The notes: a model not told the origin generated them from the sequence alone. Shown: positions 3,369 through 64,000, counted from the first letter of the stretch. The stretch: 64,000 bases of DNA from Bacteroidetes bacterium 2013_40CM_41_45 (GCA_002215675.1 NGFH01000003.1:80957-144956), one strand, 5' to 3'. Numbers and translations: made by a program.

Positions 3369-4298
3369 ATGACAAAAAAATTAACAATAGAATACTGTAA
3401 GAAAAAATCTAAAGAAAAAGAATATATATTGTTAGAAAATATTTATTTGAATGCTCATACGAAAATGAATTTTCAACATGTAAAATGTAAGTATATATTT
3501 TCGATGAAATGGAATAATTTTAATTCTGGAGATAGATGTCCGAATTGTCAACGCAAATCAGTTGGATTTAAAAAAAGATTAAAAATAGAAGATTGTAAAA
3601 AAATAGCTTTCAATAGAGGATTTAAATTATTGAACAATATTTATATCAACAATAAAACAAAAATGGAGTTCGTTCACATTGATTGTGGATTTAAATTTTT
3701 AAAAGGGTGGAGTAATTTTCAATCAGAAAAAGGTTGTCCAAAATGTTCTGGTAAAATTAAATTGAGCATTGAATTTTGTCAAAAAGAATCTTTCAATCGG
3801 GGTTATCAATTGCTTTCTAAAAAATATAAAAATAATAAAACAAAAATGAATTTTAAACATATTGAATGTCAATCTAATTTTTTGATGAATTGGACTAATT
3901 TCTATAATGGTAAAAGAGGTTGTCCAACATGTGATTCCAGTCTCGGAGAGTTAGAGATAAAAAAATATTTAAAAATATGGAAAATAAAAAATTATCATGA
4001 ATATTATGGATTTAAAGAATGTCGAGATAAAAAAGTTTTACCATTTGATTTCTATATAAAAAAATATAACATCTGTATTGAATATCAAGGAAAACAACAT
4101 TTTGAACCTATACAATACACATATTCAATAACTATAGAACAAGCTAAGAAAAATTTAAGAATACAAAAAAATCATGATAAAATAAAAAGAAAATTCTGTA
4201 AGAATAATAATATCATATTGCTTGAAATAAGATATAAAGATTTCAATAATATAGAAAATATTTTATATAATAAAATAGAGGAAATTAAAAATGGATAA
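3369..4298 (+). CDS. Zn-ribbon-repeat (DUF4379-like) protein with C-terminal nuclease-like module; putative homing-type endonuclease
   Basis: Three ~45-aa repeats, each ending in CPxC (CPNCQ, CPKCSG, CPTCDS). The C-terminal block FDFYIKKYNICIEYQGKQHFEP is shared with 22233 and 48931. Confidence 0.6.
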   Translation: MTKKLTIEYCKKKSKEKEYILLENIYLNAHTKMNFQHVKCKYIFSMKWNNFNSGDRCPNCQRKSVGFKKRLKIEDCKKIAFNRGFKLLNNIYINNKTKMEFVHIDCGFKFLKGWSNFQSEKGCPKCSGKIKLSIEFCQKESFNRGYQLLSKKYKNNKTKMNFKHIECQSNFLMNWTNFYNGKRGCPTCDSSLGELEIKKYLKIWKIKNYHEYYGFKECRDKKVLPFDFYIKKYNICIEYQGKQHFEPIQYTYSITIEQAKKNLRIQKNHDKIKRKFCKNNNIILLEIRYKDFNNIENILYNKIEEIKNG

Positions 4299-13222: not shown

Positions 13223-13486
13223 ATGAAATTGAATGGGCGTTTTTATATTGAAGATGAAAAAGACTCTTCAGGTTATTGGAATCTTGTTGACACAATAGAT
13301 GGTACATTAATCGGATTCAAAAAGAAAAGCGACGCAAAAGAATCCTTAACGTTTGCTAGACAATATGTTAAACGTCATGGTGATATTGATTTTTTATCAT
13401 TCCCTTATTCAATAGATACTCCCCTCCATTATGAATCATATAATGGGCGGGAACGAATCCAAATAGAGGACAAAATAAAATCATGA
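13223..13486 (+). CDS. hypothetical protein
   Basis: 87 aa. The RBS is GTGAGG. Confidence 0.5.
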   Translation: MKLNGRFYIEDEKDSSGYWNLVDTIDGTLIGFKKKSDAKESLTFARQYVKRHGDIDFLSFPYSIDTPLHYESYNGRERIQIEDKIKS

Positions 13487-14001
13487 ATGAAACACAAAAT
13501 AAAAATAATCTATTACAACTAAAAATAATTGAAGAGACTCATAGGTGGTATGAAGAGGCTTGCACAATATATAATCTTAATATGAATCTTGTATCTGATT
13601 TGAAAATTGATTTTAATCTAAAAAATTCTACCGCTGGCATTGCATATTCTATCCAAAACAAAATAGAGTATAATTTAATTCTTGCCTCTCAAAATGAAGA
13701 CGCTTTTATTAAGCGAACGATTCCCCATGAGGTCATGCATTTAGTAGCAAATAAAATTTACAAAAGGAATGTCGGCCATAAAAAAGAATGGGCGCAAGTT
13801 ATGACAAGACTCGGGTTAACTCCCTCGCGTTGCCATACTTACGAATTAAAAAATTTAAGCAGAAAATTTTATAAATATAATTGTGGATGTAATGCGCCTC
13901 ATGAGGTTGGAATCAATCTTCACAAAAAAATGCAAGCGGGCGACATGAGAAAATGTTCTATCTGCAAGGAATATCTAAATTTTGATTCTGCTATAGATTA
14001 G
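13483..14001 (+). CDS. SprT-like zinc metalloprotease
   Basis: HEVMH...GHKKEW (HExxH plus a downstream His) and a C-terminal CGC...CSIC zinc ribbon. Confidence 0.65.
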   Translation: MNETQNKNNLLQLKIIEETHRWYEEACTIYNLNMNLVSDLKIDFNLKNSTAGIAYSIQNKIEYNLILASQNEDAFIKRTIPHEVMHLVANKIYKRNVGHKKEWAQVMTRLGLTPSRCHTYELKNLSRKFYKYNCGCNAPHEVGINLHKKMQAGDMRKCSICKEYLNFDSAID

Positions 14002-14042
14002 GAAACTCCCATTAAGGAATAATTGACATAATCCTTGACCCA

Positions 14043-14071
14043 TGATATAATCACTCAAACATAATCCAAAA
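14043..14071 (+). promoter_or_regulatory. sigma70-type promoter TTGACA-N17-TGaTATAAT
   Basis: TTGACA at 14043-14048 and TATAAT at 14066-14071. Confidence 0.6.
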
Positions 14072-15249: not shown

Positions 15250-15663
15250 ATGATAATAGTCAAGGTGGATGGTCAAGCACGTGCAAAACGTTTAAAAAAT
15301 AATGACCCTGTTTTATTTGGCAATAAATGGTATAATACAGAAGGGTTGGCGAAAGATATTAAGGCAGATGAATCCTTTTGTTATAATGGATACTGGTATA
15401 CGGCTGAAAAAATTATGTCATTACAAGATGAATTTATTAATACTAGTATTGAAGTAGAATATATCACATATATTTATCAAGGTAAAGGTAAAGATGAAGG
15501 TGAACAATTATCAATCTATTATGATGGTCGTGGACTTGGTTGGCATTCGTGGCTTTTTGGTAGAGGTGATATAACAGGCGGCATGAATGTCGACGATGTT
15601 AAGAATGAAACAGAAAAGAAACTCGGAATCAAAATAACTAACCTCGAATATTTTCAATATTAA
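15250..15663 (+). CDS. hypothetical protein
   Basis: RBS GGAGG 8 nt upstream of ATG 15250. The track start at 15235 is a TTG. Confidence 0.5.
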   Translation: MIIVKVDGQARAKRLKNNDPVLFGNKWYNTEGLAKDIKADESFCYNGYWYTAEKIMSLQDEFINTSIEVEYITYIYQGKGKDEGEQLSIYYDGRGLGWHSWLFGRGDITGGMNVDDVKNETEKKLGIKITNLEYFQY

Positions 15664-15681
15664 CGAATGGGAGATTATACC

Positions 15682-15906
15682 ATGATAGAATGGACTGAAG
15701 CTTATAATATTCATCGTGCCAAGATAGGCAGTACATTAACTCTTATTTGCGAATGGGAATCTGGCGGTTATAAAGTTATGGCGGCTGGCGGAGTGCGAAT
15801 AAATAAATTGATTAATCTCGTTCCAAATTTGGATGAAGCAAAAAGAAAGACAATAAAACTTGGCAAGAAAACTCTTGAAGAATCATTAAAAATAATTGAC
15901 TCTTAA
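15682..15906 (+). CDS. hypothetical small protein upstream of the Fic-like gene (possible antitoxin partner)
   Basis: RBS GGGAGA precedes it. 75 aa. Confidence 0.45.
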   Translation: MIEWTEAYNIHRAKIGSTLTLICEWESGGYKVMAAGGVRINKLINLVPNLDEAKRKTIKLGKKTLEESLKIIDS

Positions 15907-15924
15907 TCAATGGGAGATTTTAAA

Positions 15925-16347
15925 ATGTCAAAAGTTACAGAATTTTGTATTGCAGAATGCGAACGCCAAAATGATTTAACTACTGAAGCGGTTGCTGGAA
16001 TGGTAGAAGCATGGTATTATGCAATGCCAATGAATGAGAACAATATTAACGAAGTTGTTATTGAAATAATCGCCCATATGATTAAGCCTGAAAATAATGC
16101 GAAGGGTTATAGAAATACACCCGTTATTTTTTCTAATGGCGAGTCTGGATTATCTTATTTAATCATTGGCCGCGCTATGGAAAATCTTATTGATAATATT
16201 CGCTATATGACGCCTCTTAATTTTTATAAAGAATTTGAATTGATACATCCATTTGAGGATGGTAATGGAAGAATCGGAGCAATCCTTTATAATGTATTGA
16301 CTGGTACAATGGGTGACCCTCAGATTCCACCAAATATATTTGATTAA
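15925..16347 (+). CDS. Fic/Doc family protein (HPFxDGNGR motif)
   Basis: HPFEDGNGRIGAILY matches the Fic core HxFx(D/E)GNGRxxR. 141 aa. RBS GGGAGA. Confidence 0.7.
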   Translation: MSKVTEFCIAECERQNDLTTEAVAGMVEAWYYAMPMNENNINEVVIEIIAHMIKPENNAKGYRNTPVIFSNGESGLSYLIIGRAMENLIDNIRYMTPLNFYKEFELIHPFEDGNGRIGAILYNVLTGTMGDPQIPPNIFD

Positions 16348-16366
16348 TCAATGGGCGTTTTGGCTA

Positions 16367-16395
16367 TTGACAAATAAAAGAATTTAGTTTATAAT
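16367..16395 (+). promoter_or_regulatory. sigma70-type promoter TTGACA-N17-TATAAT
   Basis: TTGACA at 16367-16372 and TATAAT at 16390-16395. Confidence 0.55.
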
Positions 16396-16504
16396 TATAT
16401 TACGCTCGAATAAATAAACAATGTCGGATGCTAAAAAGATATGGCTTAAAATTGGATTGTCATAGTCCACCGAAGCGTAAAAAAATTTTTATCATGAGGT
16501 AAAA

Positions 16505-16606
16505 ATGGCAAAATTCAAGAATAAAGAAAAGCAAAAGACAATTCAACGTAAACAGGAACGCAAGCAAAAAGAGATTAAGCTTAATCCTAAAATGCCAAAA
16601 GAATAA
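16505..16606 (+). CDS. small lysine-rich peptide (33 aa, MAKFKNKEKQKTIQRKQERKQKEIKLNPKMPKE)
   Basis: RBS GAGGTAAAA precedes the ATG. Below the ORF-track length cutoff. Confidence 0.3.
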   Translation: MAKFKNKEKQKTIQRKQERKQKEIKLNPKMPKE

Positions 16607-16671
16607 TTATTTTTATTTTATTGAATAAAATTTATATAGGGGTTTGCAATTATTGAAAGTTTATTAAAGCA

Positions 16672-22232: not shown

Positions 22233-23207
22233 ATGGGAAATATTATTGATTTGACAGGGCATAAATATGGAAGATTAACCGTTCTAGAATTAGATTATGT
22301 AAATAAAAAAGGAAAAACGTATTGGAGTTGTCTTTGCGAATGTGGAAATCATATTACTATTCAGTCAGGAAATTTGAGAAATGGAAATACTAAGTCTTGT
22401 GGTTGTTATAATAAAGAAAAAGTAAGTGAAAGAAGTAGAATAGATTTAACTGGAAAAATTTTCGGAAGATTAAAAGTTTTAAAAATAGAACATTTAAACA
22501 AAGAACTATATTGGTTGTGTGAATGTTTAAATGATGGAAATTTATTAATTGTTAGGGCGTCTCAATTAAAAAATGGTAAAACTAAATCCTGTGGATGTTT
22601 TCAAAAGGAAATAGTTAGCAAGAGAAGTTTTATAAATTTGATAGATAAAAAATTTGGATTTTTAACCATCATAGAACTTGCTTATATGGATAAAAATAGG
22701 GGAGCATTTTGGAAATGCCAATGTTCAAGAGATGGTAATTATATTATCACGAGTTCCAGTAGTTTAAAATCGGGAAATACGAAATCATGTGGATGTTTAT
22801 CGGAAAGTTGGATTGCTTCTGAACTTAAAAAATATTTCAAGAAAAAATATGGAGCAGAAATAGAATATAAGATTTTCAAAAATATAAAGACAAACAAATT
22901 TTTACCTTTTGATATATTTTTACCGAAAGAAAATATTTATATTGAAATTCATGGACAACATCATTACAAAATTCATCGTTGGCATTATCTACAAGCTAAA
23001 AAAAATAATACATCCGTTAATCAAGAATTTTATTATCAAAAAATTAAAGATTATATGAAAAAAATGTTTGCAAAAATAAATGGGATTTACATTGAGATTG
23101 ATTTAAGAAAAATTATTGTTCCCGAAGATGCAATTATGCAAATAAATAAAATTATTAAAAATAAAATCAAAACTAGAATATTTCACCTATTGACTTTTTG
23201 GGTGTAA
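22233..23207 (+). CDS. repeat-containing putative endonuclease (GRLTVL-type repeats plus Cys clusters, same C-terminal nuclease-like module as 3369 and 48931)
   Basis: Repeats HKYGRLTVLELDY, GKIFGRLKVLKIEH and KKFGFLTIIELAY. CxCxxG clusters. C-terminus is FLPFDIFLPKENIYIEIHGQHHYK. Confidence 0.55.
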   Translation: MGNIIDLTGHKYGRLTVLELDYVNKKGKTYWSCLCECGNHITIQSGNLRNGNTKSCGCYNKEKVSERSRIDLTGKIFGRLKVLKIEHLNKELYWLCECLNDGNLLIVRASQLKNGKTKSCGCFQKEIVSKRSFINLIDKKFGFLTIIELAYMDKNRGAFWKCQCSRDGNYIITSSSSLKSGNTKSCGCLSESWIASELKKYFKKKYGAEIEYKIFKNIKTNKFLPFDIFLPKENIYIEIHGQHHYKIHRWHYLQAKKNNTSVNQEFYYQKIKDYMKKMFAKINGIYIEIDLRKIIVPEDAIMQINKIIKNKIKTRIFHLLTFWV

Positions 23208-33254: not shown

Positions 33255-33264
33255 GAGAATGAAA

Positions 33265-34356
33265 ATGACCGATAGGCCAATGGCAACACTTAGAACTGTA
33301 AATAATAAATATCCTATTCCTGAAAAGGATAGGATTGAATTGATTCAGGTAGATGGATGGCAAGTAATTTCAAAAAAGGATGAATTTGAAATTGGTGATA
33401 TGTGCATATATGCTGAACCAGATTCTATTTTTCCTGAAATACCAGATTTTGAATTTCTTCGTCCTAAAAAATTTCGTATTAAAACTATGAAGATGGCTGG
33501 AGTTATTAGTCAAGGCATTGTTTTTCCATTATCAATTCTCCCCCTCCGCAACAAGAAATATGTTCTTGGCGAAGATGTTACGGAATTGATTGGTATCACA
33601 AAATATAAAAGTGAACCAGATAATTCAATTCCACAACCAACATGGATGAAAAATCCAATTGTTAAAAAACTTTTGAGATATAAAATTTTTAGAACAATTC
33701 TTTTGCCAAATAAAGAATATAAAGGATTTCCAAAATTCATTTCTAAAACAGATGAAGAAAATGTTCAAAATTTACCATATTTATTTTCTGAAGAATTTAA
33801 AAACGTTCCATTTGCTGTTCGTGAAAAAATAGAAGGTCAATCAGGAACGTGGTTTCTTCAAAGAAAAAAGAATTGGTTTGGAAAAGAAATTTTTGAATTT
33901 GGAGTTTGTTCAAGAAATATTCGTAAATTCAAAAAAGATAATTCATCATTTTGGAAAGTTGCCATAAAATATAATATTGAAAATATTCTAAAAGAATTAA
34001 TTGGTGATAAAAATGAATGGATTGCCATTCAGGGTGAATGTGTTGGCCCCGGCATTCAAGGCAATATCTATAAATTAAATGATGTTGATGTTTATATGTT
34101 TAATTATATAGAACCAAAAGGAAAAATGGATGATAAAATAGCTGAAGTTGTTATGAATTCATATAGCATTAGATGGTGTCCTTTAATTGATAATGAATAT
34201 TATCTTCCATCAACAGCAAATGATGTTCTTGAATATTCAAATGGTACATCGCTTTTATATAATACTGACCGTGAAGGATTGGTATTTCGCAATTACGAAA
34301 AAAATATTAGCTTCAAAGCACGTTCACCTAAATATTTATTAAAATCTGATACATAG
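33265..34356 (+). CDS. ATP-dependent RNA-ligase-like nucleotidyltransferase
   Basis: KIEGQSG (motif I-like K-x-E/D-G), EGLVFRN (motif IV-like) and FKARSPKYLLK (motif V-like). Confidence 0.5.
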   Translation: MTDRPMATLRTVNNKYPIPEKDRIELIQVDGWQVISKKDEFEIGDMCIYAEPDSIFPEIPDFEFLRPKKFRIKTMKMAGVISQGIVFPLSILPLRNKKYVLGEDVTELIGITKYKSEPDNSIPQPTWMKNPIVKKLLRYKIFRTILLPNKEYKGFPKFISKTDEENVQNLPYLFSEEFKNVPFAVREKIEGQSGTWFLQRKKNWFGKEIFEFGVCSRNIRKFKKDNSSFWKVAIKYNIENILKELIGDKNEWIAIQGECVGPGIQGNIYKLNDVDVYMFNYIEPKGKMDDKIAEVVMNSYSIRWCPLIDNEYYLPSTANDVLEYSNGTSLLYNTDREGLVFRNYEKNISFKARSPKYLLKSDT

Positions 34357-46935: not shown

Positions 46936-48030
46936 ATGGAACTAGAATTACTTGCTTTTATCAAACATAATCCTGATTGGAAAACAATTCTTCAGGAAAA
47001 ACCATATGGAATAACTATCAAAGAAAAAAATGGTTATATTCTCTTTATGTACAGTCAAATTGAAAGTGATTTCAAATTATCTTTAGTACGTGAATGTCGT
47101 GGTTTGATTTTACGTGAAAAAGATTTAAAACCTGTTTGTATGGCTTTCAAAAAATTCGGAAATTATGGTGAAAGTTATGTTCCCGATATTGACTGGTCAA
47201 ATGTTAAAGTACAAGAAAAAGCTGACGGTTCGATAATTAAATTGTGGTTTGATAATAATGAATGGCATGTTTCTACAAATGGAACAATTGATGCATCTGA
47301 TGCTTCACTATCAGAAAATTCAATGTTAATAGATGGATGTATTTATAAAAATTATTCTGAATTATTTCATAGTGTTTTTCCACAAAATTTATATTATGAT
47401 GTTTTGAATATTGATTTATGCTATATCTTTGAATTAGTTTCAAATTTTAATAGAGTTGTGATTCCTTATAATGAAACAGCATTGTACCATATTGGCACTA
47501 GAAATATGAAAACCCTAGAAGAATTAGACATTGACATTGGAATTAAAAAACCAAAATTATATAATTTAACTTCATTAGAAGAAATTTTAGAAATAGTAAA
47601 AAAATTACCATTCAATGATGAAGGATATGTTATTTTAGACAAATTTTGGAATAGATTAAAAATAAAATCATTAGCATATATTTCTGCTCATCATTTAAAA
47701 AATAATGGTGTTGTTACAAAGAATCGTGTTCTTGATATGATTAGAACCGGCGAACAATCTGAGTTTCTTAATTATTATCCAGAATATCAAGAAATTTTTA
47801 ATGAAGTCCAAAATAAAATTAATAAACTTTTGGTATCCATTGAACATGATTATATTCTTTTCAAAAACAGAAAATTTGAAGATAGAAAAGAAATGGCATT
47901 ATGGGTAAATCAAACTGTTTGTCCGTCTGCTATATATAGTTTATATGATAAAAAAGTATCAGATGTAAATAGTTTTGTTTTCGGATTAACTAATGAGCGT
48001 TTATTGAAAATGATTGGAGAAAAAGAATGA
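46936..48030 (+). CDS. ATP-dependent RNA ligase, T4 Rnl1-like
   Basis: Motif I VQEKADGS (K at ~aa 95), motif IV DEGYVILDK, motif V RLKIKSLAY. 364 aa. Confidence 0.65.
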   Translation: MELELLAFIKHNPDWKTILQEKPYGITIKEKNGYILFMYSQIESDFKLSLVRECRGLILREKDLKPVCMAFKKFGNYGESYVPDIDWSNVKVQEKADGSIIKLWFDNNEWHVSTNGTIDASDASLSENSMLIDGCIYKNYSELFHSVFPQNLYYDVLNIDLCYIFELVSNFNRVVIPYNETALYHIGTRNMKTLEELDIDIGIKKPKLYNLTSLEEILEIVKKLPFNDEGYVILDKFWNRLKIKSLAYISAHHLKNNGVVTKNRVLDMIRTGEQSEFLNYYPEYQEIFNEVQNKINKLLVSIEHDYILFKNRKFEDRKEMALWVNQTVCPSAIYSLYDKKVSDVNSFVFGLTNERLLKMIGEKE

Positions 48031-60424: not shown

Positions 60425-60506
60425 GAGAATATGATGGAATGCAGACATGCCAACCTTAGAAGTTGGTGCTAGAAATAGCATACTGGTTCAAATCCAGTTA
60501 TTCTCA
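60425..60506 (+). tRNA. tRNA-Leu(TAG), type II
   Basis: Hand fold gives acceptor GAGAATA/TATTCTC, anticodon stem CCAAC/GTTGG with loop CTTAGAA, a long variable arm, and T-arm ACTGG-TTCAAAT-CCAGT. Confidence 0.7.
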
Positions 60507-60510
60507 CTAT

Positions 60511-60585
60511 GCTGATATGAAGGGAATTGGCATACCTATTTCGCTTAAAACGAAATGTTTACAGGTTCGACTCCTGTTATCAGCA
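60511..60585 (+). tRNA. tRNA with anticodon TAA (reads UUA; Leu by anticodon) but short variable loop (type I-like)
   Basis: Acceptor GCTGATA/TATCAGC. Anticodon stem TTTCG/CGAAA with loop CTTAAAA. T-arm ACAGG-TTCGACT-CCTGT. 75 nt. Confidence 0.5.
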
Positions 60586-60599
60586 CAAACAATCACTAT

Positions 60600-60685
60600 G
60601 TTCATGTGGCTGGAATTTGGTAGACGCGGCAGTTTCAAAAACTGTTATCTGAAAAGATGTGTGAGTTCGATTCTCTCCATGAACA
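60600..60685 (+). tRNA. tRNA-Leu(CAA), type II
   Basis: Acceptor GTTCATG/CATGAAC. Anticodon loop TTCAAAA. Variable arm ATCT-GAAA-AGAT. 86 nt. Confidence 0.6.
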
Positions 60686-60689
60686 CTAT

Positions 60690-60761
60690 GTCCCATTATT
60701 TCAATGGATAGAATAAAACGCTACGAACGTTTTGGTGCGAGTTCGACTCTTGCATGGGACT
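60690..60761 (+). tRNA. tRNA-Arg(ACG)
   Basis: Acceptor GTCCCAT/ATGGGAC. Anticodon stem AAACG/CGTTT with loop CTACGAA. T-arm GCGAG-TTCGACT-CTTGC. Confidence 0.65.
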
Positions 60762-60787
60762 CAAAAATTAAATGAAAAGGATGTTTT

Positions 60788-61102
60788 ATGAATAAATTTT
60801 GGTGTATATTTAGAATATTTTTTAAGAATACACTAGGAGAACTTTATGCTATTATGATAGGTGTGCCATTAGTTATAATAGTTTTTTTATTGATTTCTCA
60901 TTGGATAAGTAATTATGGAATTTATATAAAATCTTTTCTTTATAATATTCTTTATCAAATTTGTTTATTTTTATATTTATATAAAGATTTTATTATTTAT
61001 TTTCTATTTTCAATTTTCAATTTATTTTATATTTATGGATTTTATTCTGCATTGAAATATCAATGGAATAAAGCCAAAAAAGAATACAGTGGTATATTAT
61101 GA
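60788..61102 (+). CDS. small membrane protein
   Basis: 104 aa, hydrophobic. Lies between tRNA groups. Confidence 0.4.
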   Translation: MNKFWCIFRIFFKNTLGELYAIMIGVPLVIIVFLLISHWISNYGIYIKSFLYNILYQICLFLYLYKDFIIYFLFSIFNLFYIYGFYSALKYQWNKAKKEYSGIL

Positions 61103-61455
61103 GATTTCAAATTGCACAAAAAGGTGAAAAAAGAGATGTGGAAGGATTTCTTTGGCTTCCAAGAGGCTTTGATGGCAATGAAATAAGATGGTTAGAACAT
61201 GCTAAATGGAGAGAATATTATGATGGTATTAATTGGATATTTTACTATTGGAATGATTAAACGCAGTTAATAAAGGAAATATTTTATTAATAAAAAAATA
61301 GAGTTGGGCATATTCGTATGGATTGTAGTAAGTTTATTGTATTTTATAATTCTAGGATTTACTTTACGTCATATAATGTTACTATCATTTGGCTTTATTT
61401 ATGGGATTTTAAAAATAATTTCATCAATTGATGAAACGTGAATTTTATCAATAAT

Positions 61456-61536
61456 GAGTTTGTAGCCTATTGGGATGGCATCTGCCTCTTAAGCAGACAG
61501 AGTAATCTAGAACAGGTTCGATTCCTGTCAGACTCA
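61456..61536 (+). tRNA. atypical tRNA, anticodon CTT (Lys by anticodon) with 3-bp D-stem and 14-nt variable region
   Basis: Acceptor GAGTTTG/CAGACTC (one G-U pair). Anticodon stem TCTGC/GCAGA with loop CTCTTAA. T-arm ACAGG-TTCGATT-CCTGT. Confidence 0.45.
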
Positions 61537-61549
61537 CAGAAATAAAAAT

Positions 61550-61635
61550 GGAAGAATGCATTCATGGGAATAACTAGTCTTGAAAACTAGGCTACCGAGT
61601 AGCCCTCGATAACGGTTCGATTCCGTATCCTTCCT
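61550..61635 (+). tRNA. tRNA-Ser(TGA), type II (boundaries approximate)
   Basis: Anticodon stem CTAGT/ACTAG with loop CTTGAAA. Variable arm GCTAC-CGA-GTAGC. T-loop TTCGATT. Confidence 0.5.
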
Positions 61636-61672
61636 CTAGTAAGAAAAATTCATTTTCAAAAGGATATTAAAA

Positions 61673-61804
61673 ATGTCGCCAAAGAATGAAGTTACTAAAA
61701 AATATTTGATTACAAGAGATGAAGAAGTTTTCACTGATTGGCTTTTCAAAAGTCAGGTGAGCGATTATATTCGCAGAGGATATATCGTTGAAGAAATAAA
61801 GTAA
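61673..61804 (+). CDS. small hypothetical protein (43 aa) between tRNAs
   Basis: Manual translation gives MSPKNEVTKKYLITRDEEVF... Confidence 0.3.
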   Translation: MSPKNEVTKKYLITRDEEVFTDWLFKSQVSDYIRRGYIVEEIK

Positions 61805-61810
61805 TGAATT

Positions 61811-61900
61811 GGAATCATGACAGAGTAGCAATGTGTATGTTTGCTAAACATAAGCCACCAGTAACATGATGCGTAGGTGCAAATCCTACTGATTCCGCCA
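61811..61900 (+). tRNA. tRNA-Ser(GCT), type II, with encoded 3' CCA
   Basis: Acceptor GGAATCA/TGATTCC. Anticodon stem TATGT/ACATA with loop TTGCTAA. T-arm GTAGG-TGCAAAT-CCTAC. CCA at 61898-61900. Confidence 0.55.
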
Positions 61901-61903
61901 AAT

Positions 61904-61974
61904 GACACCTATTCCTACCGGGTGGGGAATTGTCTGCAAAACAATTAATAGAGATTCGACTTCTCTAGGTGTCT
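61904..61974 (+). tRNA. tRNA-Cys(GCA)
   Basis: Acceptor GACACCT/AGGTGTC. Anticodon stem ATTGT/ACAAT with loop CTGCAAA. T-arm AGAGA-TTCGACT-TCTCT. Confidence 0.65.
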
Positions 61975-62005
61975 CTTTCAGCATTTGTTGAAACAGGAGC
62001 AAATA

Positions 62006-62143
62006 ATGAAAATTGAAAAAGCAAACAAAAGAGATAAAAAACGCTTCAAAAAGAAGAATGGAATGATTGTTGGAAATAAAAGTATTTTTATAATACAAGA
62101 AATACAAATAAAGAAATCGAATAAATTAAAGAAAAATAAATAA
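62006..62143 (+). CDS. small basic peptide (45 aa) between tRNAs
   Basis: RBS CAGGAG. Sequence is MKIEKANKRDKKRFKKKNGM... Confidence 0.3.
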   Translation: MKIEKANKRDKKRFKKKNGMIVGNKSIFIIQEIQIKKSNKLKKNK

Positions 62144-62147
62144 TTAT

Positions 62148-62220
62148 GTGTTTGTAGTGTAGTTAGTCTGCACGTTTGCCTGAAGAGCAGAAAGTGCTAG
62201 TGCAATTCTAGCCGGACACA
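62148..62220 (+). tRNA. tRNA-Phe(GAA)
   Basis: Acceptor GTGTTTG/CGGACAC (two G-U pairs). D-stem GTGT/GCAC. Anticodon loop CTGAAGA. T-arm GCTAG-TGCAATT-CTAGC. Confidence 0.6.
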
Positions 62221-62224
62221 CTAT

Positions 62225-62301
62225 CCTCCAATATACCCTCGTTCTTATAAAGCGCAGAAAGGTTAATTGGTGACATGATGGTTCGAGTCCATCTTGGAGG
62301 A
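62225..62301 (+). ncRNA. tRNA-like element: perfect 7-bp acceptor stem and canonical T-arm, but no anticodon arm found by hand
   Basis: CCTCCAA...GATGG-TTCGAGT-CCATC-TTGGAGG-A. No 5-bp/7-nt-loop pairing fits in the intervening 45 nt. Confidence 0.35.
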
Positions 62302-62305
62302 CTCT

Positions 62306-62378
62306 ATTCCTATAACTCAATAGTAGAGTGTCCGTTTTACATGCGGAATGTTGGGGGTGCAAGTCCCTCTAGGAATAC
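62306..62378 (+). tRNA. tRNA-Val(TAC)
   Basis: Acceptor ATTCCTA/TAGGAAT. D-stem ACTC/GAGT. Anticodon stem TCCGT/GCGGA with loop TTTACAT. T-arm GGGGG-TGCAAGT-CCCTC. Confidence 0.65.
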
Positions 62379-62399
62379 TAAAATTTAAGGAGAATAAAA

Positions 62400-62648
62400 A
62401 TGAATGAAAATGATATAGAACACATTATTAATCAAATGAAATATATTCCTATTAGAAATTTTTATCATGCAGATAGATATGATACAGATAATGAATATGT
62501 TATTCATCTTTGGACTGAAATAGGTCAAAAAAATTTTGACATTAGAATTAAAAAAGAAAAAATTAAATGTCCATATTGTGACGATTTTTATTATGAGGGT
62601 GGTTGGGCAAATCATTTATTAATGAAACATCATCAACATGCTGGATAA
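62400..62648 (+). CDS. hypothetical protein (CPYC ... HLLMKHHQH zinc-finger-like)
   Basis: RBS AAGGAGAA. Confidence 0.5.
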   Translation: MNENDIEHIINQMKYIPIRNFYHADRYDTDNEYVIHLWTEIGQKNFDIRIKKEKIKCPYCDDFYYEGGWANHLLMKHHQHAG

Positions 62649-62656
62649 ATTATAAA

Positions 62657-62911
62657 ATGAGACAAGTTAAACTTTTATATTTCAAATCATATGGTAAATA
62701 TTATTCTGAAGGTTCGTATGCTACTCAAAAAGAATATGATTTTGATGTTTATACCGAAGTAGAAAATATGTTTTTAATTGGTAGTTATCCGGGACTATAT
62801 AACACTGGAAAACCTCATGAATTTGATTGTGTTATTTTCCCTGAAAATGGTGTTCCCGGAATTCTTTATGCAAAAGAAATACAAAATTTATTTAAGATGA
62901 TTAATGGCTAA
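62657..62911 (+). CDS. hypothetical protein
   Basis: Start re-set to MRQVKL. Confidence 0.45.
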   Translation: MRQVKLLYFKSYGKYYSEGSYATQKEYDFDVYTEVENMFLIGSYPGLYNTGKPHEFDCVIFPENGVPGILYAKEIQNLFKMING

Positions 62912-63149
62912 ATTTGATTTAAGACCGATAATGGAATTTCAAGTAAAAGTTGTTTTGACCGAAGAAGAAGCTAGGGCGTTGCAATATATTTGTAAATATG
63001 GTGCAGATACTTTAATCAAAGGCTTGGATACTGTCATGACCACAAAAGAAATTAGCAAGGGAATCAGAAGTCTTGTTCGTGATACACAAGATTCTATAAA
63101 TAAACAAATTAGTAAAATTGATGAAGCTAGAAAAGTAGTTGAAGAATAA
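62904..63149 (+). CDS. hypothetical protein
   Basis: 81 aa. Confidence 0.45.
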   Translation: MAKFDLRPIMEFQVKVVLTEEEARALQYICKYGADTLIKGLDTVMTTKEISKGIRSLVRDTQDSINKQISKIDEARKVVEE

Positions 63150-63152
63150 TTG

Positions 63153-63446
63153 ATGAAATTTATGTTTTATGGAAATAATATAATTATGTTCAAACAAAAA
63201 TGTCCAATATGTGATTCAAAATTAGAATATGATATTGATAATTTAGATTTTTATCTAATGGAAGAGCATTATAATTGCCCCAATAAAGATTATTCTTATT
63301 CATATGAATATGGAATGACAAACATAACAATAGGAAATAAAGAATTTAATTATACTTATTTGGATAGCAATGTAAAAAAAGCTTTAATTTTAAAAGAAAT
63401 CAAATTAGAGACTGAAAGATTGAAGTCCTTGACAAGATTAGAATAA
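63153..63446 (+). CDS. hypothetical protein (CPICD...CPNKD)
   Basis: 97 aa. Confidence 0.4.
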   Translation: MKFMFYGNNIIMFKQKCPICDSKLEYDIDNLDFYLMEEHYNCPNKDYSYSYEYGMTNITIGNKEFNYTYLDSNVKKALILKEIKLETERLKSLTRLE

Positions 63447-63483
63447 TATGGTATAATTATATTAAATTAGAAAGGAATTATTT

Positions 63484-63708
63484 ATGAAATCATATCATAT
63501 TGTTTTATTGTCTGCTTTGGCAACTTTGTGTGCTTTATTTTCTTTTGTTAATTCTGTTCGAGATATGGAAATTGATAATAATGCTTTCATTCTCGAAACA
63601 AATAACTATGACTTAATTATTGCTCATAATGATAATCATGTTGAATTTAATTTGAATTATTTTTATGGTAATAAAGCATATCAAATAGAAAAAATTTTTA
63701 TTTTTTAG
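63484..63708 (+). CDS. secreted/membrane small protein (N-terminal signal-like helix)
   Basis: RBS AGGAA. 74 aa. Confidence 0.45.
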   Translation: MKSYHIVLLSALATLCALFSFVNSVRDMEIDNNAFILETNNYDLIIAHNDNHVEFNLNYFYGNKAYQIEKIFIF

Positions 63709-63819
63709 TTATTTATTGACTGTTTTTGGTGCATAGTCAAATTTATATCGTAATGATATAAGGGACGCTTGGCGACCTACATAGAAAAGCATAGTAACCA
63801 TATTTATTAAAAATTAAAT

Positions 63820-63891
63820 GCTGTTTTGGTCTATTGGCTAAGACAATTCTTTCTCAAAGAATTATGATGGGTTCGATTCCCATAAACAGCA
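63820..63891 (+). tRNA. tRNA-Glu(CTC)
   Basis: Acceptor GCTGTTT/AAACAGC. D-stem GTCT/AGAC. Anticodon stem ATTCT/AGAAT with loop TTCTCAA. T-arm ATGGG-TTCGATT-CCCAT. Confidence 0.6.
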
Positions 63892-64000
63892 CAAATATAA
63901 AAGACACGCACAGTAATCAAACCCAATTCAACCGTTAATTGAAAAATAAGTGTCTTGAAAAATAATTTATATATGTACAGATAGACTCTCACAGCAAATA

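Follow-up and report, generated by a model that had tools for sequence, protein, structure and literature searches.

How is a Fic protein of only about 140 residues kept in check, and what might it do for the genome that carries it? The question arises from positions 15250 to 16347 of a 64,000-nucleotide stretch of DNA from Bacteroidetes bacterium 2013_40CM_41_45 (GCA_002215675.1, NGFH01000003.1:80957-144956; this whole stretch is called the window below), where three small open reading frames (ORFs) lie in a row and the third encodes a Fic active-site motif. A preliminary description had taken the product for a Doc-sized toxin made in an early region, with the two upstream genes as its partners or antitoxins. 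Fic enzymes are nearly always restrained by an inhibitory Glu together with the second Arg, R(2), of the motif HxFx(D/E)GNGRxxR; the protein studied here belongs to a large natural family of some 140 residues, which we call mini-Fic, in which both are replaced. In the window's member this autoinhibitory pair is gone, helices α6 and α7 are lost, the catalytic, metal, anion-nest and flap residues are kept, and no partner gene is conserved beside it. On balance, and with no more than moderate confidence, we read it as a stand-alone, constitutively active minimal Fic transferase of a large uncultured phage, made early in infection and modifying a host protein.

A Fic fold with an intact core motif in 140 residues

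The active-site motif HPFEDGNGRIGAILY occupies residues 108-122 of the protein (nucleotides 16246-16290). Its nine-residue core HPFEDGNGR (residues 108-116) is complete and fits HxFx(D/E)GN(G/K)R; the motif had been described as intact, which holds for this core but not for the full HxFx(D/E)GNGRxxR, where the second Arg is Ala119. The protein has 140 residues, one fewer than first reported. A search with Fic hidden Markov models, proposed at the outset, placed it above the Pfam cut-off (PF02661, 30.8 bits, gathering score 24, E 5.3e-7), the single-sequence match spanning profile positions 43-92 of 93 only. Among 5.8 billion proteins 30 homologues of 116-213 aa were found, all of them with PF02661, and the profile of their alignment (A1) matched FICD with E 1.4e-12 over profile positions 18-132.

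The AlphaFold2 model computed from A1 shows an all-α Fic fold with high scores (predicted local distance difference test, pLDDT, 96.7; predicted template modelling score 0.91). It contains six helices (residues 3-14, 20-33, 43-53, 78-90, 97-107 and 114-126), a β-hairpin at about 68-74 and an ordered tail, residues 127-140. Compared with the PDB by Foldseek, the model retrieved Fic domains only (FICD, CdFic, C. elegans FIC-1, SoFic, NmFic and IbpA-Fic2), with probability 1.0 and query TM scores of 0.56-0.73 (0.6-0.73 for FICD, CdFic, IbpA-Fic2 and NmFic). Every one of these matches is larger than the 140-residue query, and the nearest entries in a viral structure library were likewise ordinary, larger Fic proteins. 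The Pfam score, the FICD profile match, the model and the Foldseek result together confirm a genuine small Fic-fold protein in which the catalytic His, Asp, Asn and Arg are intact.

The family is large. When 1.84 billion cluster representatives were searched with a profile, 432 proteins reached E <= 1e-30 and 1,707 reached E <= 1e-10, which puts the family at no fewer than 432 clusters at 50% identity; the best 150 profile matches are nearly all 140-165 aa long and align end to end. Conservation was assessed over 176 sequences. R63, H108, G113, N114, G115 and R116 are invariant, and conservation remains very high at Q15, P109 and G118 (99%), D112 (98%), F104 and N123 (96%), P132 (95%), E11 and N58 (94%), P136 (91%) and V67 (88%). 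That the active-site and flap residues are invariant over hundreds of clusters argues for selection on catalysis. The flap stretch aligns to FICD 'RFRTTQVLVG', and its lead-in G-Y-R63 is conserved.

The truncation lies at the C-terminal end. The chain stops 14 residues beyond α5, at 'IPPNIFD', which aligns to FICD 'YPPITIR' (within 'GYPPITIR'); beyond this point FICD and a sister group of short viral Fic proteins run on with '..(D/E)YY..'. Helices α6 and α7 are therefore missing from mini-Fic, and in canonical Fic proteins α6 lines the base pocket. From the catalytic His to the C-terminus the family has a median of 37 residues.

Both residues of the autoinhibitory pair are replaced

About 90% of canonical Fic members belong to three inhibition classes (PMC3667792). 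The inhibitory Glu outcompetes the ATP γ-phosphate for R(2) and hydrogen-bonds the ribose 3'-OH, while R(2) itself anchors the γ-phosphate in the competent binding mode (PMC3667792; PMC8401265). The base pocket is built from α4, α6 and the flap, the last of which also serves as the target dock (PMC3667792).

The comparison that locates these elements in mini-Fic comes from the sister group (alignment A2; e.g. L047, L052 and L070), short viral class II Fic proteins of 153-180 aa that are homologous to mini-Fic end to end, comparable to it in size and likewise present on viral contigs. Their N-terminal part reads '...EFLKESNAIEGV...', the canonical class II inhibitory motif, and their C-terminal 'EQxEYYKWF' aligns to FICD 'RSDYYHVL', the start of α6. 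Aligned by hhalign, A1 and A2 match over 145 columns, end to end, with probability 99.86 and E 3e-31. This alignment pairs E11 of the window's protein with the Ser, Q15 with the inhibitory Glu and N16 with the Gly of (S/T)xxxE(G/N). The family motif E11-C-x-R-Q15 thus stands in place of the class II S-x-x-x-E-G, the window's protein reading E-C-E-R-Q-N. At R(2) the family has Ala in 44%, Lys in 28% and Ser in 15% of the sequences, and Arg in 1 of 176. Gln15 and Ala119 therefore replace precisely the two residues of the autoinhibitory salt bridge.

Because A2 retains ESNAIEG, GRxGR with R(2), and a short α6, and the mini-Fic family lacks all three, autoinhibition is predicted for the sister group but not for the family of the window's protein. 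The two replacements go together: among 228 short Fic proteins, Gln at the inhibitory position is accompanied by a non-Arg residue at R(2) in 194 of 195 cases, and Glu by Arg in 27 of 27. The only Gln-plus-Arg combination is P0009 (152 aa, from a JGI metagenome), apparently a natural chimera with a mini-Fic-type N-terminal part, including the Gln, and a sister-type C-terminal part with GRTGR and '...EYYKWFKH'.

As judged from these alignments, mini-Fic descends from class II Fic proteins, those with an N-terminal inhibitory helix. Local profile alignments had at one stage equated its N-terminal helix with the helix that follows α-inh in FICD; this assignment was dropped, as A2 shows the helix to be the α-inh homologue and FICD to have an extra helix in between. 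The class II AMP-transferases human FICD/HYPE, Shewanella SoFic and Clostridioides CdFic are its best structural and profile matches and have the same fold, the N-terminal inhibitory-helix homologue, the flap with a G-x-(F/Y)-R lead-in and the HPFxDGNGR loop in common with it. They differ in length (235-460 aa against about 140), in the change of the inhibitory Glu to Gln and of R(2) to Ala, and in the parts that mini-Fic lacks, namely one helix between α-inh and the core, α6 and α7, and any tetratricopeptide repeat or winged helix-turn-helix domain. The closest anomaly in the literature reached is the loss of R(2) in clade F3, the 'GNTR' Fic proteins, which lack the last Arg and are said to have a modified inhibitory helix (Khater and Mohanty 2015, PMC4454073); in F3, however, the second Gly is Thr, whereas GNGR is intact in mini-Fic.

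Members are found on viral and metagenomic contigs

Nearly all family members originate from metagenomes or viral contigs. Seven of eight metagenomic loci are same-strand arrays of small genes with occasional phage markers, including an ERF recombinase, a 5'-3' exonuclease, a T4 endonuclease V-type Pyr_excise protein, a peptide deformylase and a CCA-adding-type enzyme, and IMG/VR contigs 35-150 kb long carry about 28 more full-length members. The sole non-viral context seen is in a metagenome-assembled genome of Candidatus Spechtbacterales, a bacterium of the candidate phyla radiation (L011, 5001-5579), where a 192-aa member with Asp at R(2), an N-terminal extension and one insertion sits between a Na/H exchanger gene and IMPDH. 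In species-representative cellular genomes the pattern HPFxDGNGR gave motif-level partial matches only among the matches listed, which is suggestive, and only that, of a family rare in cellular genomes.

Relatives are already labelled Fic-family in public sources. The subfamily itself is undescribed in the literature reached, as searches on phage Fic proteins, anti-defence proteins and polyvalent proteins turned up no description of it. Its traits are the minimal size, Gln for the inhibitory Glu, the absence of R(2), the absence of α6 and α7, and a near-exclusively viral or metagenomic origin.

Ten longer family members carry the Fic domain and no other domain. Two very long proteins include a mini-Fic: one of 1,717 aa (L035), at residues 433-590, and a viral protein of at least 1,480 aa (L020, 20-4462; IMGVR_UViG_3300032360_001291), which has pentapeptide repeats at about 324-407 and a C-terminal mini-Fic at 1323-1469. 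Qnr and other pentapeptide-repeat proteins bind gyrase, and GyrB is AMPylated by FicT toxins. The second fusion is possibly a hint at the target, suggestive at most. In L014 (3637-5423) there is a 4-nt overlap between the mini-Fic gene and the end of a 455-aa gene of the CCA-adding/poly(A)-polymerase type with an HD domain, which suggests translational coupling at that locus.

Predicted activity and the choice of donor

Loss of autoinhibition would leave a constitutively active, one-way transferase for which no antitoxin would be needed. In the mechanism we propose, a segment of a host protein would dock on the flap, His108 would deprotonate the hydroxyl of a Ser, Thr or Tyr in that target, and the hydroxyl would attack the diphosphate of a nucleotide-type donor sitting in the Gly-rich anion nest, with Asp112 binding the metal. 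A phosphoryl-linked group would thereby be attached and the target inactivated, to the benefit of host takeover or counter-defence. As a default guess, the group transferred would be AMP from ATP.

Several points weigh against this reading. R(2) and the α6 part of the base pocket are absent, and AMPylation may therefore be weak or replaced. The covariation of Gln with a non-Arg residue divides two clades, and may record one evolutionary event, with no repeated co-selection behind it. Gln15 is placed at the active site by homology, and the early timing is predicted from promoter consensus alone. Finally, no cultured phage, and no phage in GenBank, was found to carry a member when the window's protein and two divergent members were compared by tblastn with 50,697 phage records; these gave ordinary Fic proteins at motif level only, or nothing.

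The alternative that fares best keeps the Fic chemistry and switches the donor or the group: a diphosphate-only donor (CDP- or UDP-linked), or a donor bound in inverted orientation as in AnkX and Doc, would then lead to a non-AMP modification. Since the inhibitory Glu, R(2) and α6, all ATP-specific elements, are lost together, the choice of donor is left wide, and all the residues that handle the α/β-diphosphate and the target are invariant. According to reviews, transfer of UMP, phosphocholine or phosphate goes along with slight alterations of the Fic motif (PMC4177925; PMC4454073). On the other hand, the GNGR nest of mini-Fic is canonical, unlike the GNKR of Doc, the 28% or so of members with Lys at R(2) could still bind a γ-phosphate, and nothing like the additional CMP domain is present. 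In the human FICD variant R374H, an R(2) change, AMPylated BiP still builds up, and it is apparently the reverse reaction that is lost (PMC12409994); an enzyme without R(2) may thus still transfer AMP. This variant resembles mini-Fic in its R(2) change and its deregulated net AMPylation, but it is a disease mutation in a full-length enzyme and not a natural family. We regard a switched donor as a possibility worth keeping in mind, though a doubtful one. Somewhat more tentative still is the specific proposal of a phage-borne mini-Fic clade with changed chemistry, which has lost the γ-phosphate anchor, the inhibitory Glu and the α6 pocket but retains Gln15, the diphosphate nest and the flap, and in which a non-ATP donor or a new way of binding the donor would place an as yet unseen modification on a host protein early in infection; if true, this would be a new class of viral host-takeover enzyme.

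A role in counter-defence or regulation appears improbable. In that case the protein could undo or block a Fic-type defence of the host (SoFic, PDC-S04), work as a deAMPylase, or bind a target without catalysis. Its best PADLOC match is SoFic (E 2.7e-9), which makes it a small homologue of a host defence protein, and BepC offers a precedent for a Fic domain that acts by binding alone (PMC8401265). However, deAMPylation by FICD is tied to the inhibitory Glu and R(2) (PMC12409994), both gone in mini-Fic; a pure binder is hard to square with His, Asp, Asn and Arg being invariant over hundreds of clusters; and no defence-related neighbour is conserved.

A stand-alone active transferase, which we continue to favour, would have consequences beyond this locus. 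If active, members would be the smallest self-sufficient Fic transferases known, and would represent a widespread, unstudied phage route to covalent modification of host proteins, with a role comparable to that of the T4 ADP-ribosyltransferases. The family is also a natural experiment on how the inhibitory Glu, R(2) and α6 each contribute to donor choice and reversibility.

The upstream genes are neighbours rather than conserved partners

The two genes preceding mini-Fic, p137 and p74 (Table 1), had been proposed as its partners or antitoxins. The positions given for all three ORFs, 15250, 15682 and then the Fic gene, proved right, and log-odds of codon usage, trained on the long ORFs of the window, were positive in the annotated frame only (0.50 bits per codon for p137, 0.44 for p74 and 0.56 for Fic) and negative in the other five frames of each. 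As coding-type usage is confined to the annotated frame, the three are probably real genes. An alternative in-frame ATG of the Fic gene at 15910 falls within its ribosome-binding site (RBS), and the homologues start at the position of 15925.

The arrangement recalls the class I pairs FicT/FicA and VbhT/VbhA, in which the Fic enzyme likewise follows a small same-strand gene, and a class I-type toxin-antitoxin module with p74 and/or p137 as the antitoxin was the model first put forward. The genes are indeed small, on the same strand, 18 nt apart at both junctions and of a common RBS type. The RBS types GGAGG and GGGAGA are as first described; being ordinary Shine-Dalgarno sequences, they do not speak for a partnership. 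FicA is a three-helix protein with (S/T)xxxE(G/N), whose Glu binds R(2) (PMC8401265). That inhibitory motif was found neither in p74 or p137 nor in the Fic protein itself, and mini-Fic lacks R(2), the residue targeted by class I antitoxins (PMC8401265). It has an inhibitory-helix homologue of its own and is therefore class II-derived.

Homology searches gave the same picture. Among 5.8 billion proteins p137 and p74 match nothing but themselves, and neither has a match in Pfam, PHROGs, NCBIfam, PADLOC or the PDB; the single-sequence AlphaFold2 model of p74 (pLDDT 53.5) is too poor to use. When the ORFs of the window and of eight further independent homologue loci were compared all against all, Fic genes were the only ones in common, and across 28 independent loci, IMG/VR contigs included, no family adjoins the Fic gene among 1,129 ORFs within 2.5 kb. 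The only recurrent neighbour is a SprT-like protein, found at 3 of the 28 loci 1-2.7 kb upstream of mini-Fic, and this recurrence may only reflect related phages. Antitoxins evolve fast, and the missing homologues are thus no absolute proof against such a role for p74 or p137. Even so, we hold the toxin-antitoxin model to be very improbable: p137 and p74 are neighbours of the Fic gene and not conserved partners, and by the tests applied p74 is not an antitoxin of the FicA or Phd type.

The junctions between the three genes share sequence. The 10-mer AATGGGAGAT has exact copies only before p74 and before the Fic gene in the 64-kb window. The junctions at 15660-15681 and 15903-15924 have TAA-nnn-AATGGGAGATT in common, and a degenerate copy, TAATCAATGGGCGTTTT, follows the Fic stop (16345-16360) with no ORF behind it. 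The repeated junction sequence could be the trace of a cassette-like gene insertion; the shared 10-mer is a curiosity of two junctions and not evidence for partnership.

Mini-Fic is not a Doc protein

The resemblance to Doc of phage P1 (Phd-Doc) is limited to what the two have in general terms: both are small, phage-borne members of the Fido superfamily with six helices. Doc has the signature HxFx(D/N)(A/G)NKR, in which the Lys forces inverted ATP binding and makes Doc a kinase (PMC4177925), and it lacks the first helices and the β-hairpin, which Phd supplies (PMC2686095). Mini-Fic shows none of these features, neither the GNKR, nor the missing flap and first helices, nor completion and inhibition by a Phd-like protein, nor the kinase hallmark. 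The Doc-type Lys position (motif position 8) is Gly115, invariant in all 176 sequences, the N-terminal helices and the flap are present in the model, and no Doc chain appeared among the PDB sequence matches at E <= 10, the profile matches at E <= 0.01 or the top 50 Foldseek matches. The term Doc-sized is thus apt for the length and for nothing else. That the protein might be a Doc-type kinase phosphorylating EF-Tu, for which its similar size (140 aa against 126 aa) and phage-borne origin could be cited, is hardly credible in view of Gly115, the retained flap and first helices, and the lack of any Doc chain in these searches.

Features of the locus and evidence for early expression

The coordinates of the features discussed are collected in Table 1.

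Table 1. Features of the mini-Fic protein, its locus and the surrounding window
Feature	Position	Strand	Remarks
N-terminal helix, aa 3-14, and Gln15	15931..15969	+	α-inh homologue (hhalign A1/A2); helix limits from the AlphaFold2 model
Invariant Arg63 and β-hairpin flap 'RNTPVIFSNGESG', aa 63-75	16111..16149	+	predicted target dock; β bridges at residues 68 and 74 in the model
Fic active-site loop HPFEDGNGRIGA, aa 108-119	16246..16281	+	core nine residues intact; R(2) replaced by Ala119
C-terminal tail GTMGDPQIPPNIFD, aa 127-140	16303..16344	+	stops where canonical α6 begins
mini-Fic gene	15925..16347	+	140 aa and stop; RBS GGGAGA at 15912-15917, 7 nt 5' of ATG
p74 ORF	15682..15906	+	74 aa, isoelectric point 9.2; GGGAGA 7 nt 5' of ATG; directly upstream of the Fic gene
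p137 ORF	15250..15663	+	137 aa, isoelectric point 5.1; GGAGG 8 nt 5' of ATG
SprT-like zinc-metalloprotease-domain protein (PF10263)	window 13483-14001; L016 2971-3525; L021 1260-1793	+ (window)	upstream of mini-Fic
Consensus sigma-70-type promoter, TTGACA-17-TATAAT, extended TG	14023..14051	+	12/12 hexamer matches; predicted start of a six-gene unit
Next consensus sigma-70-type promoter	16367..16395	+	12/12 hexamer matches; starts the following transcription unit
11-tRNA cluster	60425-63892		Leu x3, Arg, Lys, Ser x2, Cys, Phe, Val, Glu; ARAGORN 11, of which Rfam confirms 9

No terminator-like site was found between the two consensus promoters that flank the locus, and the Fic gene is therefore predicted to close a six-gene unit. 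As the last gene of a unit with a consensus host-type promoter, mini-Fic is probably made early in infection. Such promoters are frequent here: 18 sites within one mismatch of TTGACA-17-TATAAT occur in the window, against 2.7 +/- 1.8 expected, 15 of them on the + strand (examples lie at 14023, 16367, 20645, 27685, 42744, 58027 and 63429). This density is consistent with a very long early region transcribed by the host sigma-70 polymerase, in line with the early region originally proposed.

The window has 26-32% G+C and encodes two RNA ligases, an AAA ATPase and homing endonucleases, and its sequence is also found on contigs of up to 147.7 kb. No close cultured relative of the window was found, and a megablast of the 14-18 kb region against GenBank phages matched nothing. 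A weak Pfam match to Tad8 (E 0.073; 13 bits, cut-off 27) was discarded as noise.

Other observations in the window

The RNA ligase genes lie at 33259-34356 and 46936-48030; one has a PHA02142 OB domain together with an RNA_ligase domain and the other is of the T4 Rnl1 type. Their presence in the same region as the tRNA cluster hints at tRNA-repair counter-defence. HNH/homing-endonuclease-type genes are located at 3369-4298 and 22233-23207 (PHROG 559 and 374). The promoter at 16367 is followed by a 275-nt stretch (16396-16671) whose only ORF encodes a very basic 33-aa peptide (16505-16606, MAKFKNKEKQK...); the stretch has no Rfam match, and a scan of the whole window with Rfam returned tRNAs only. 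At about 12-13 kb the GC skew changes sign and gene orientation turns from mostly - to uniformly +; a divergent promoter region may lie there, or a boundary resembling an origin.

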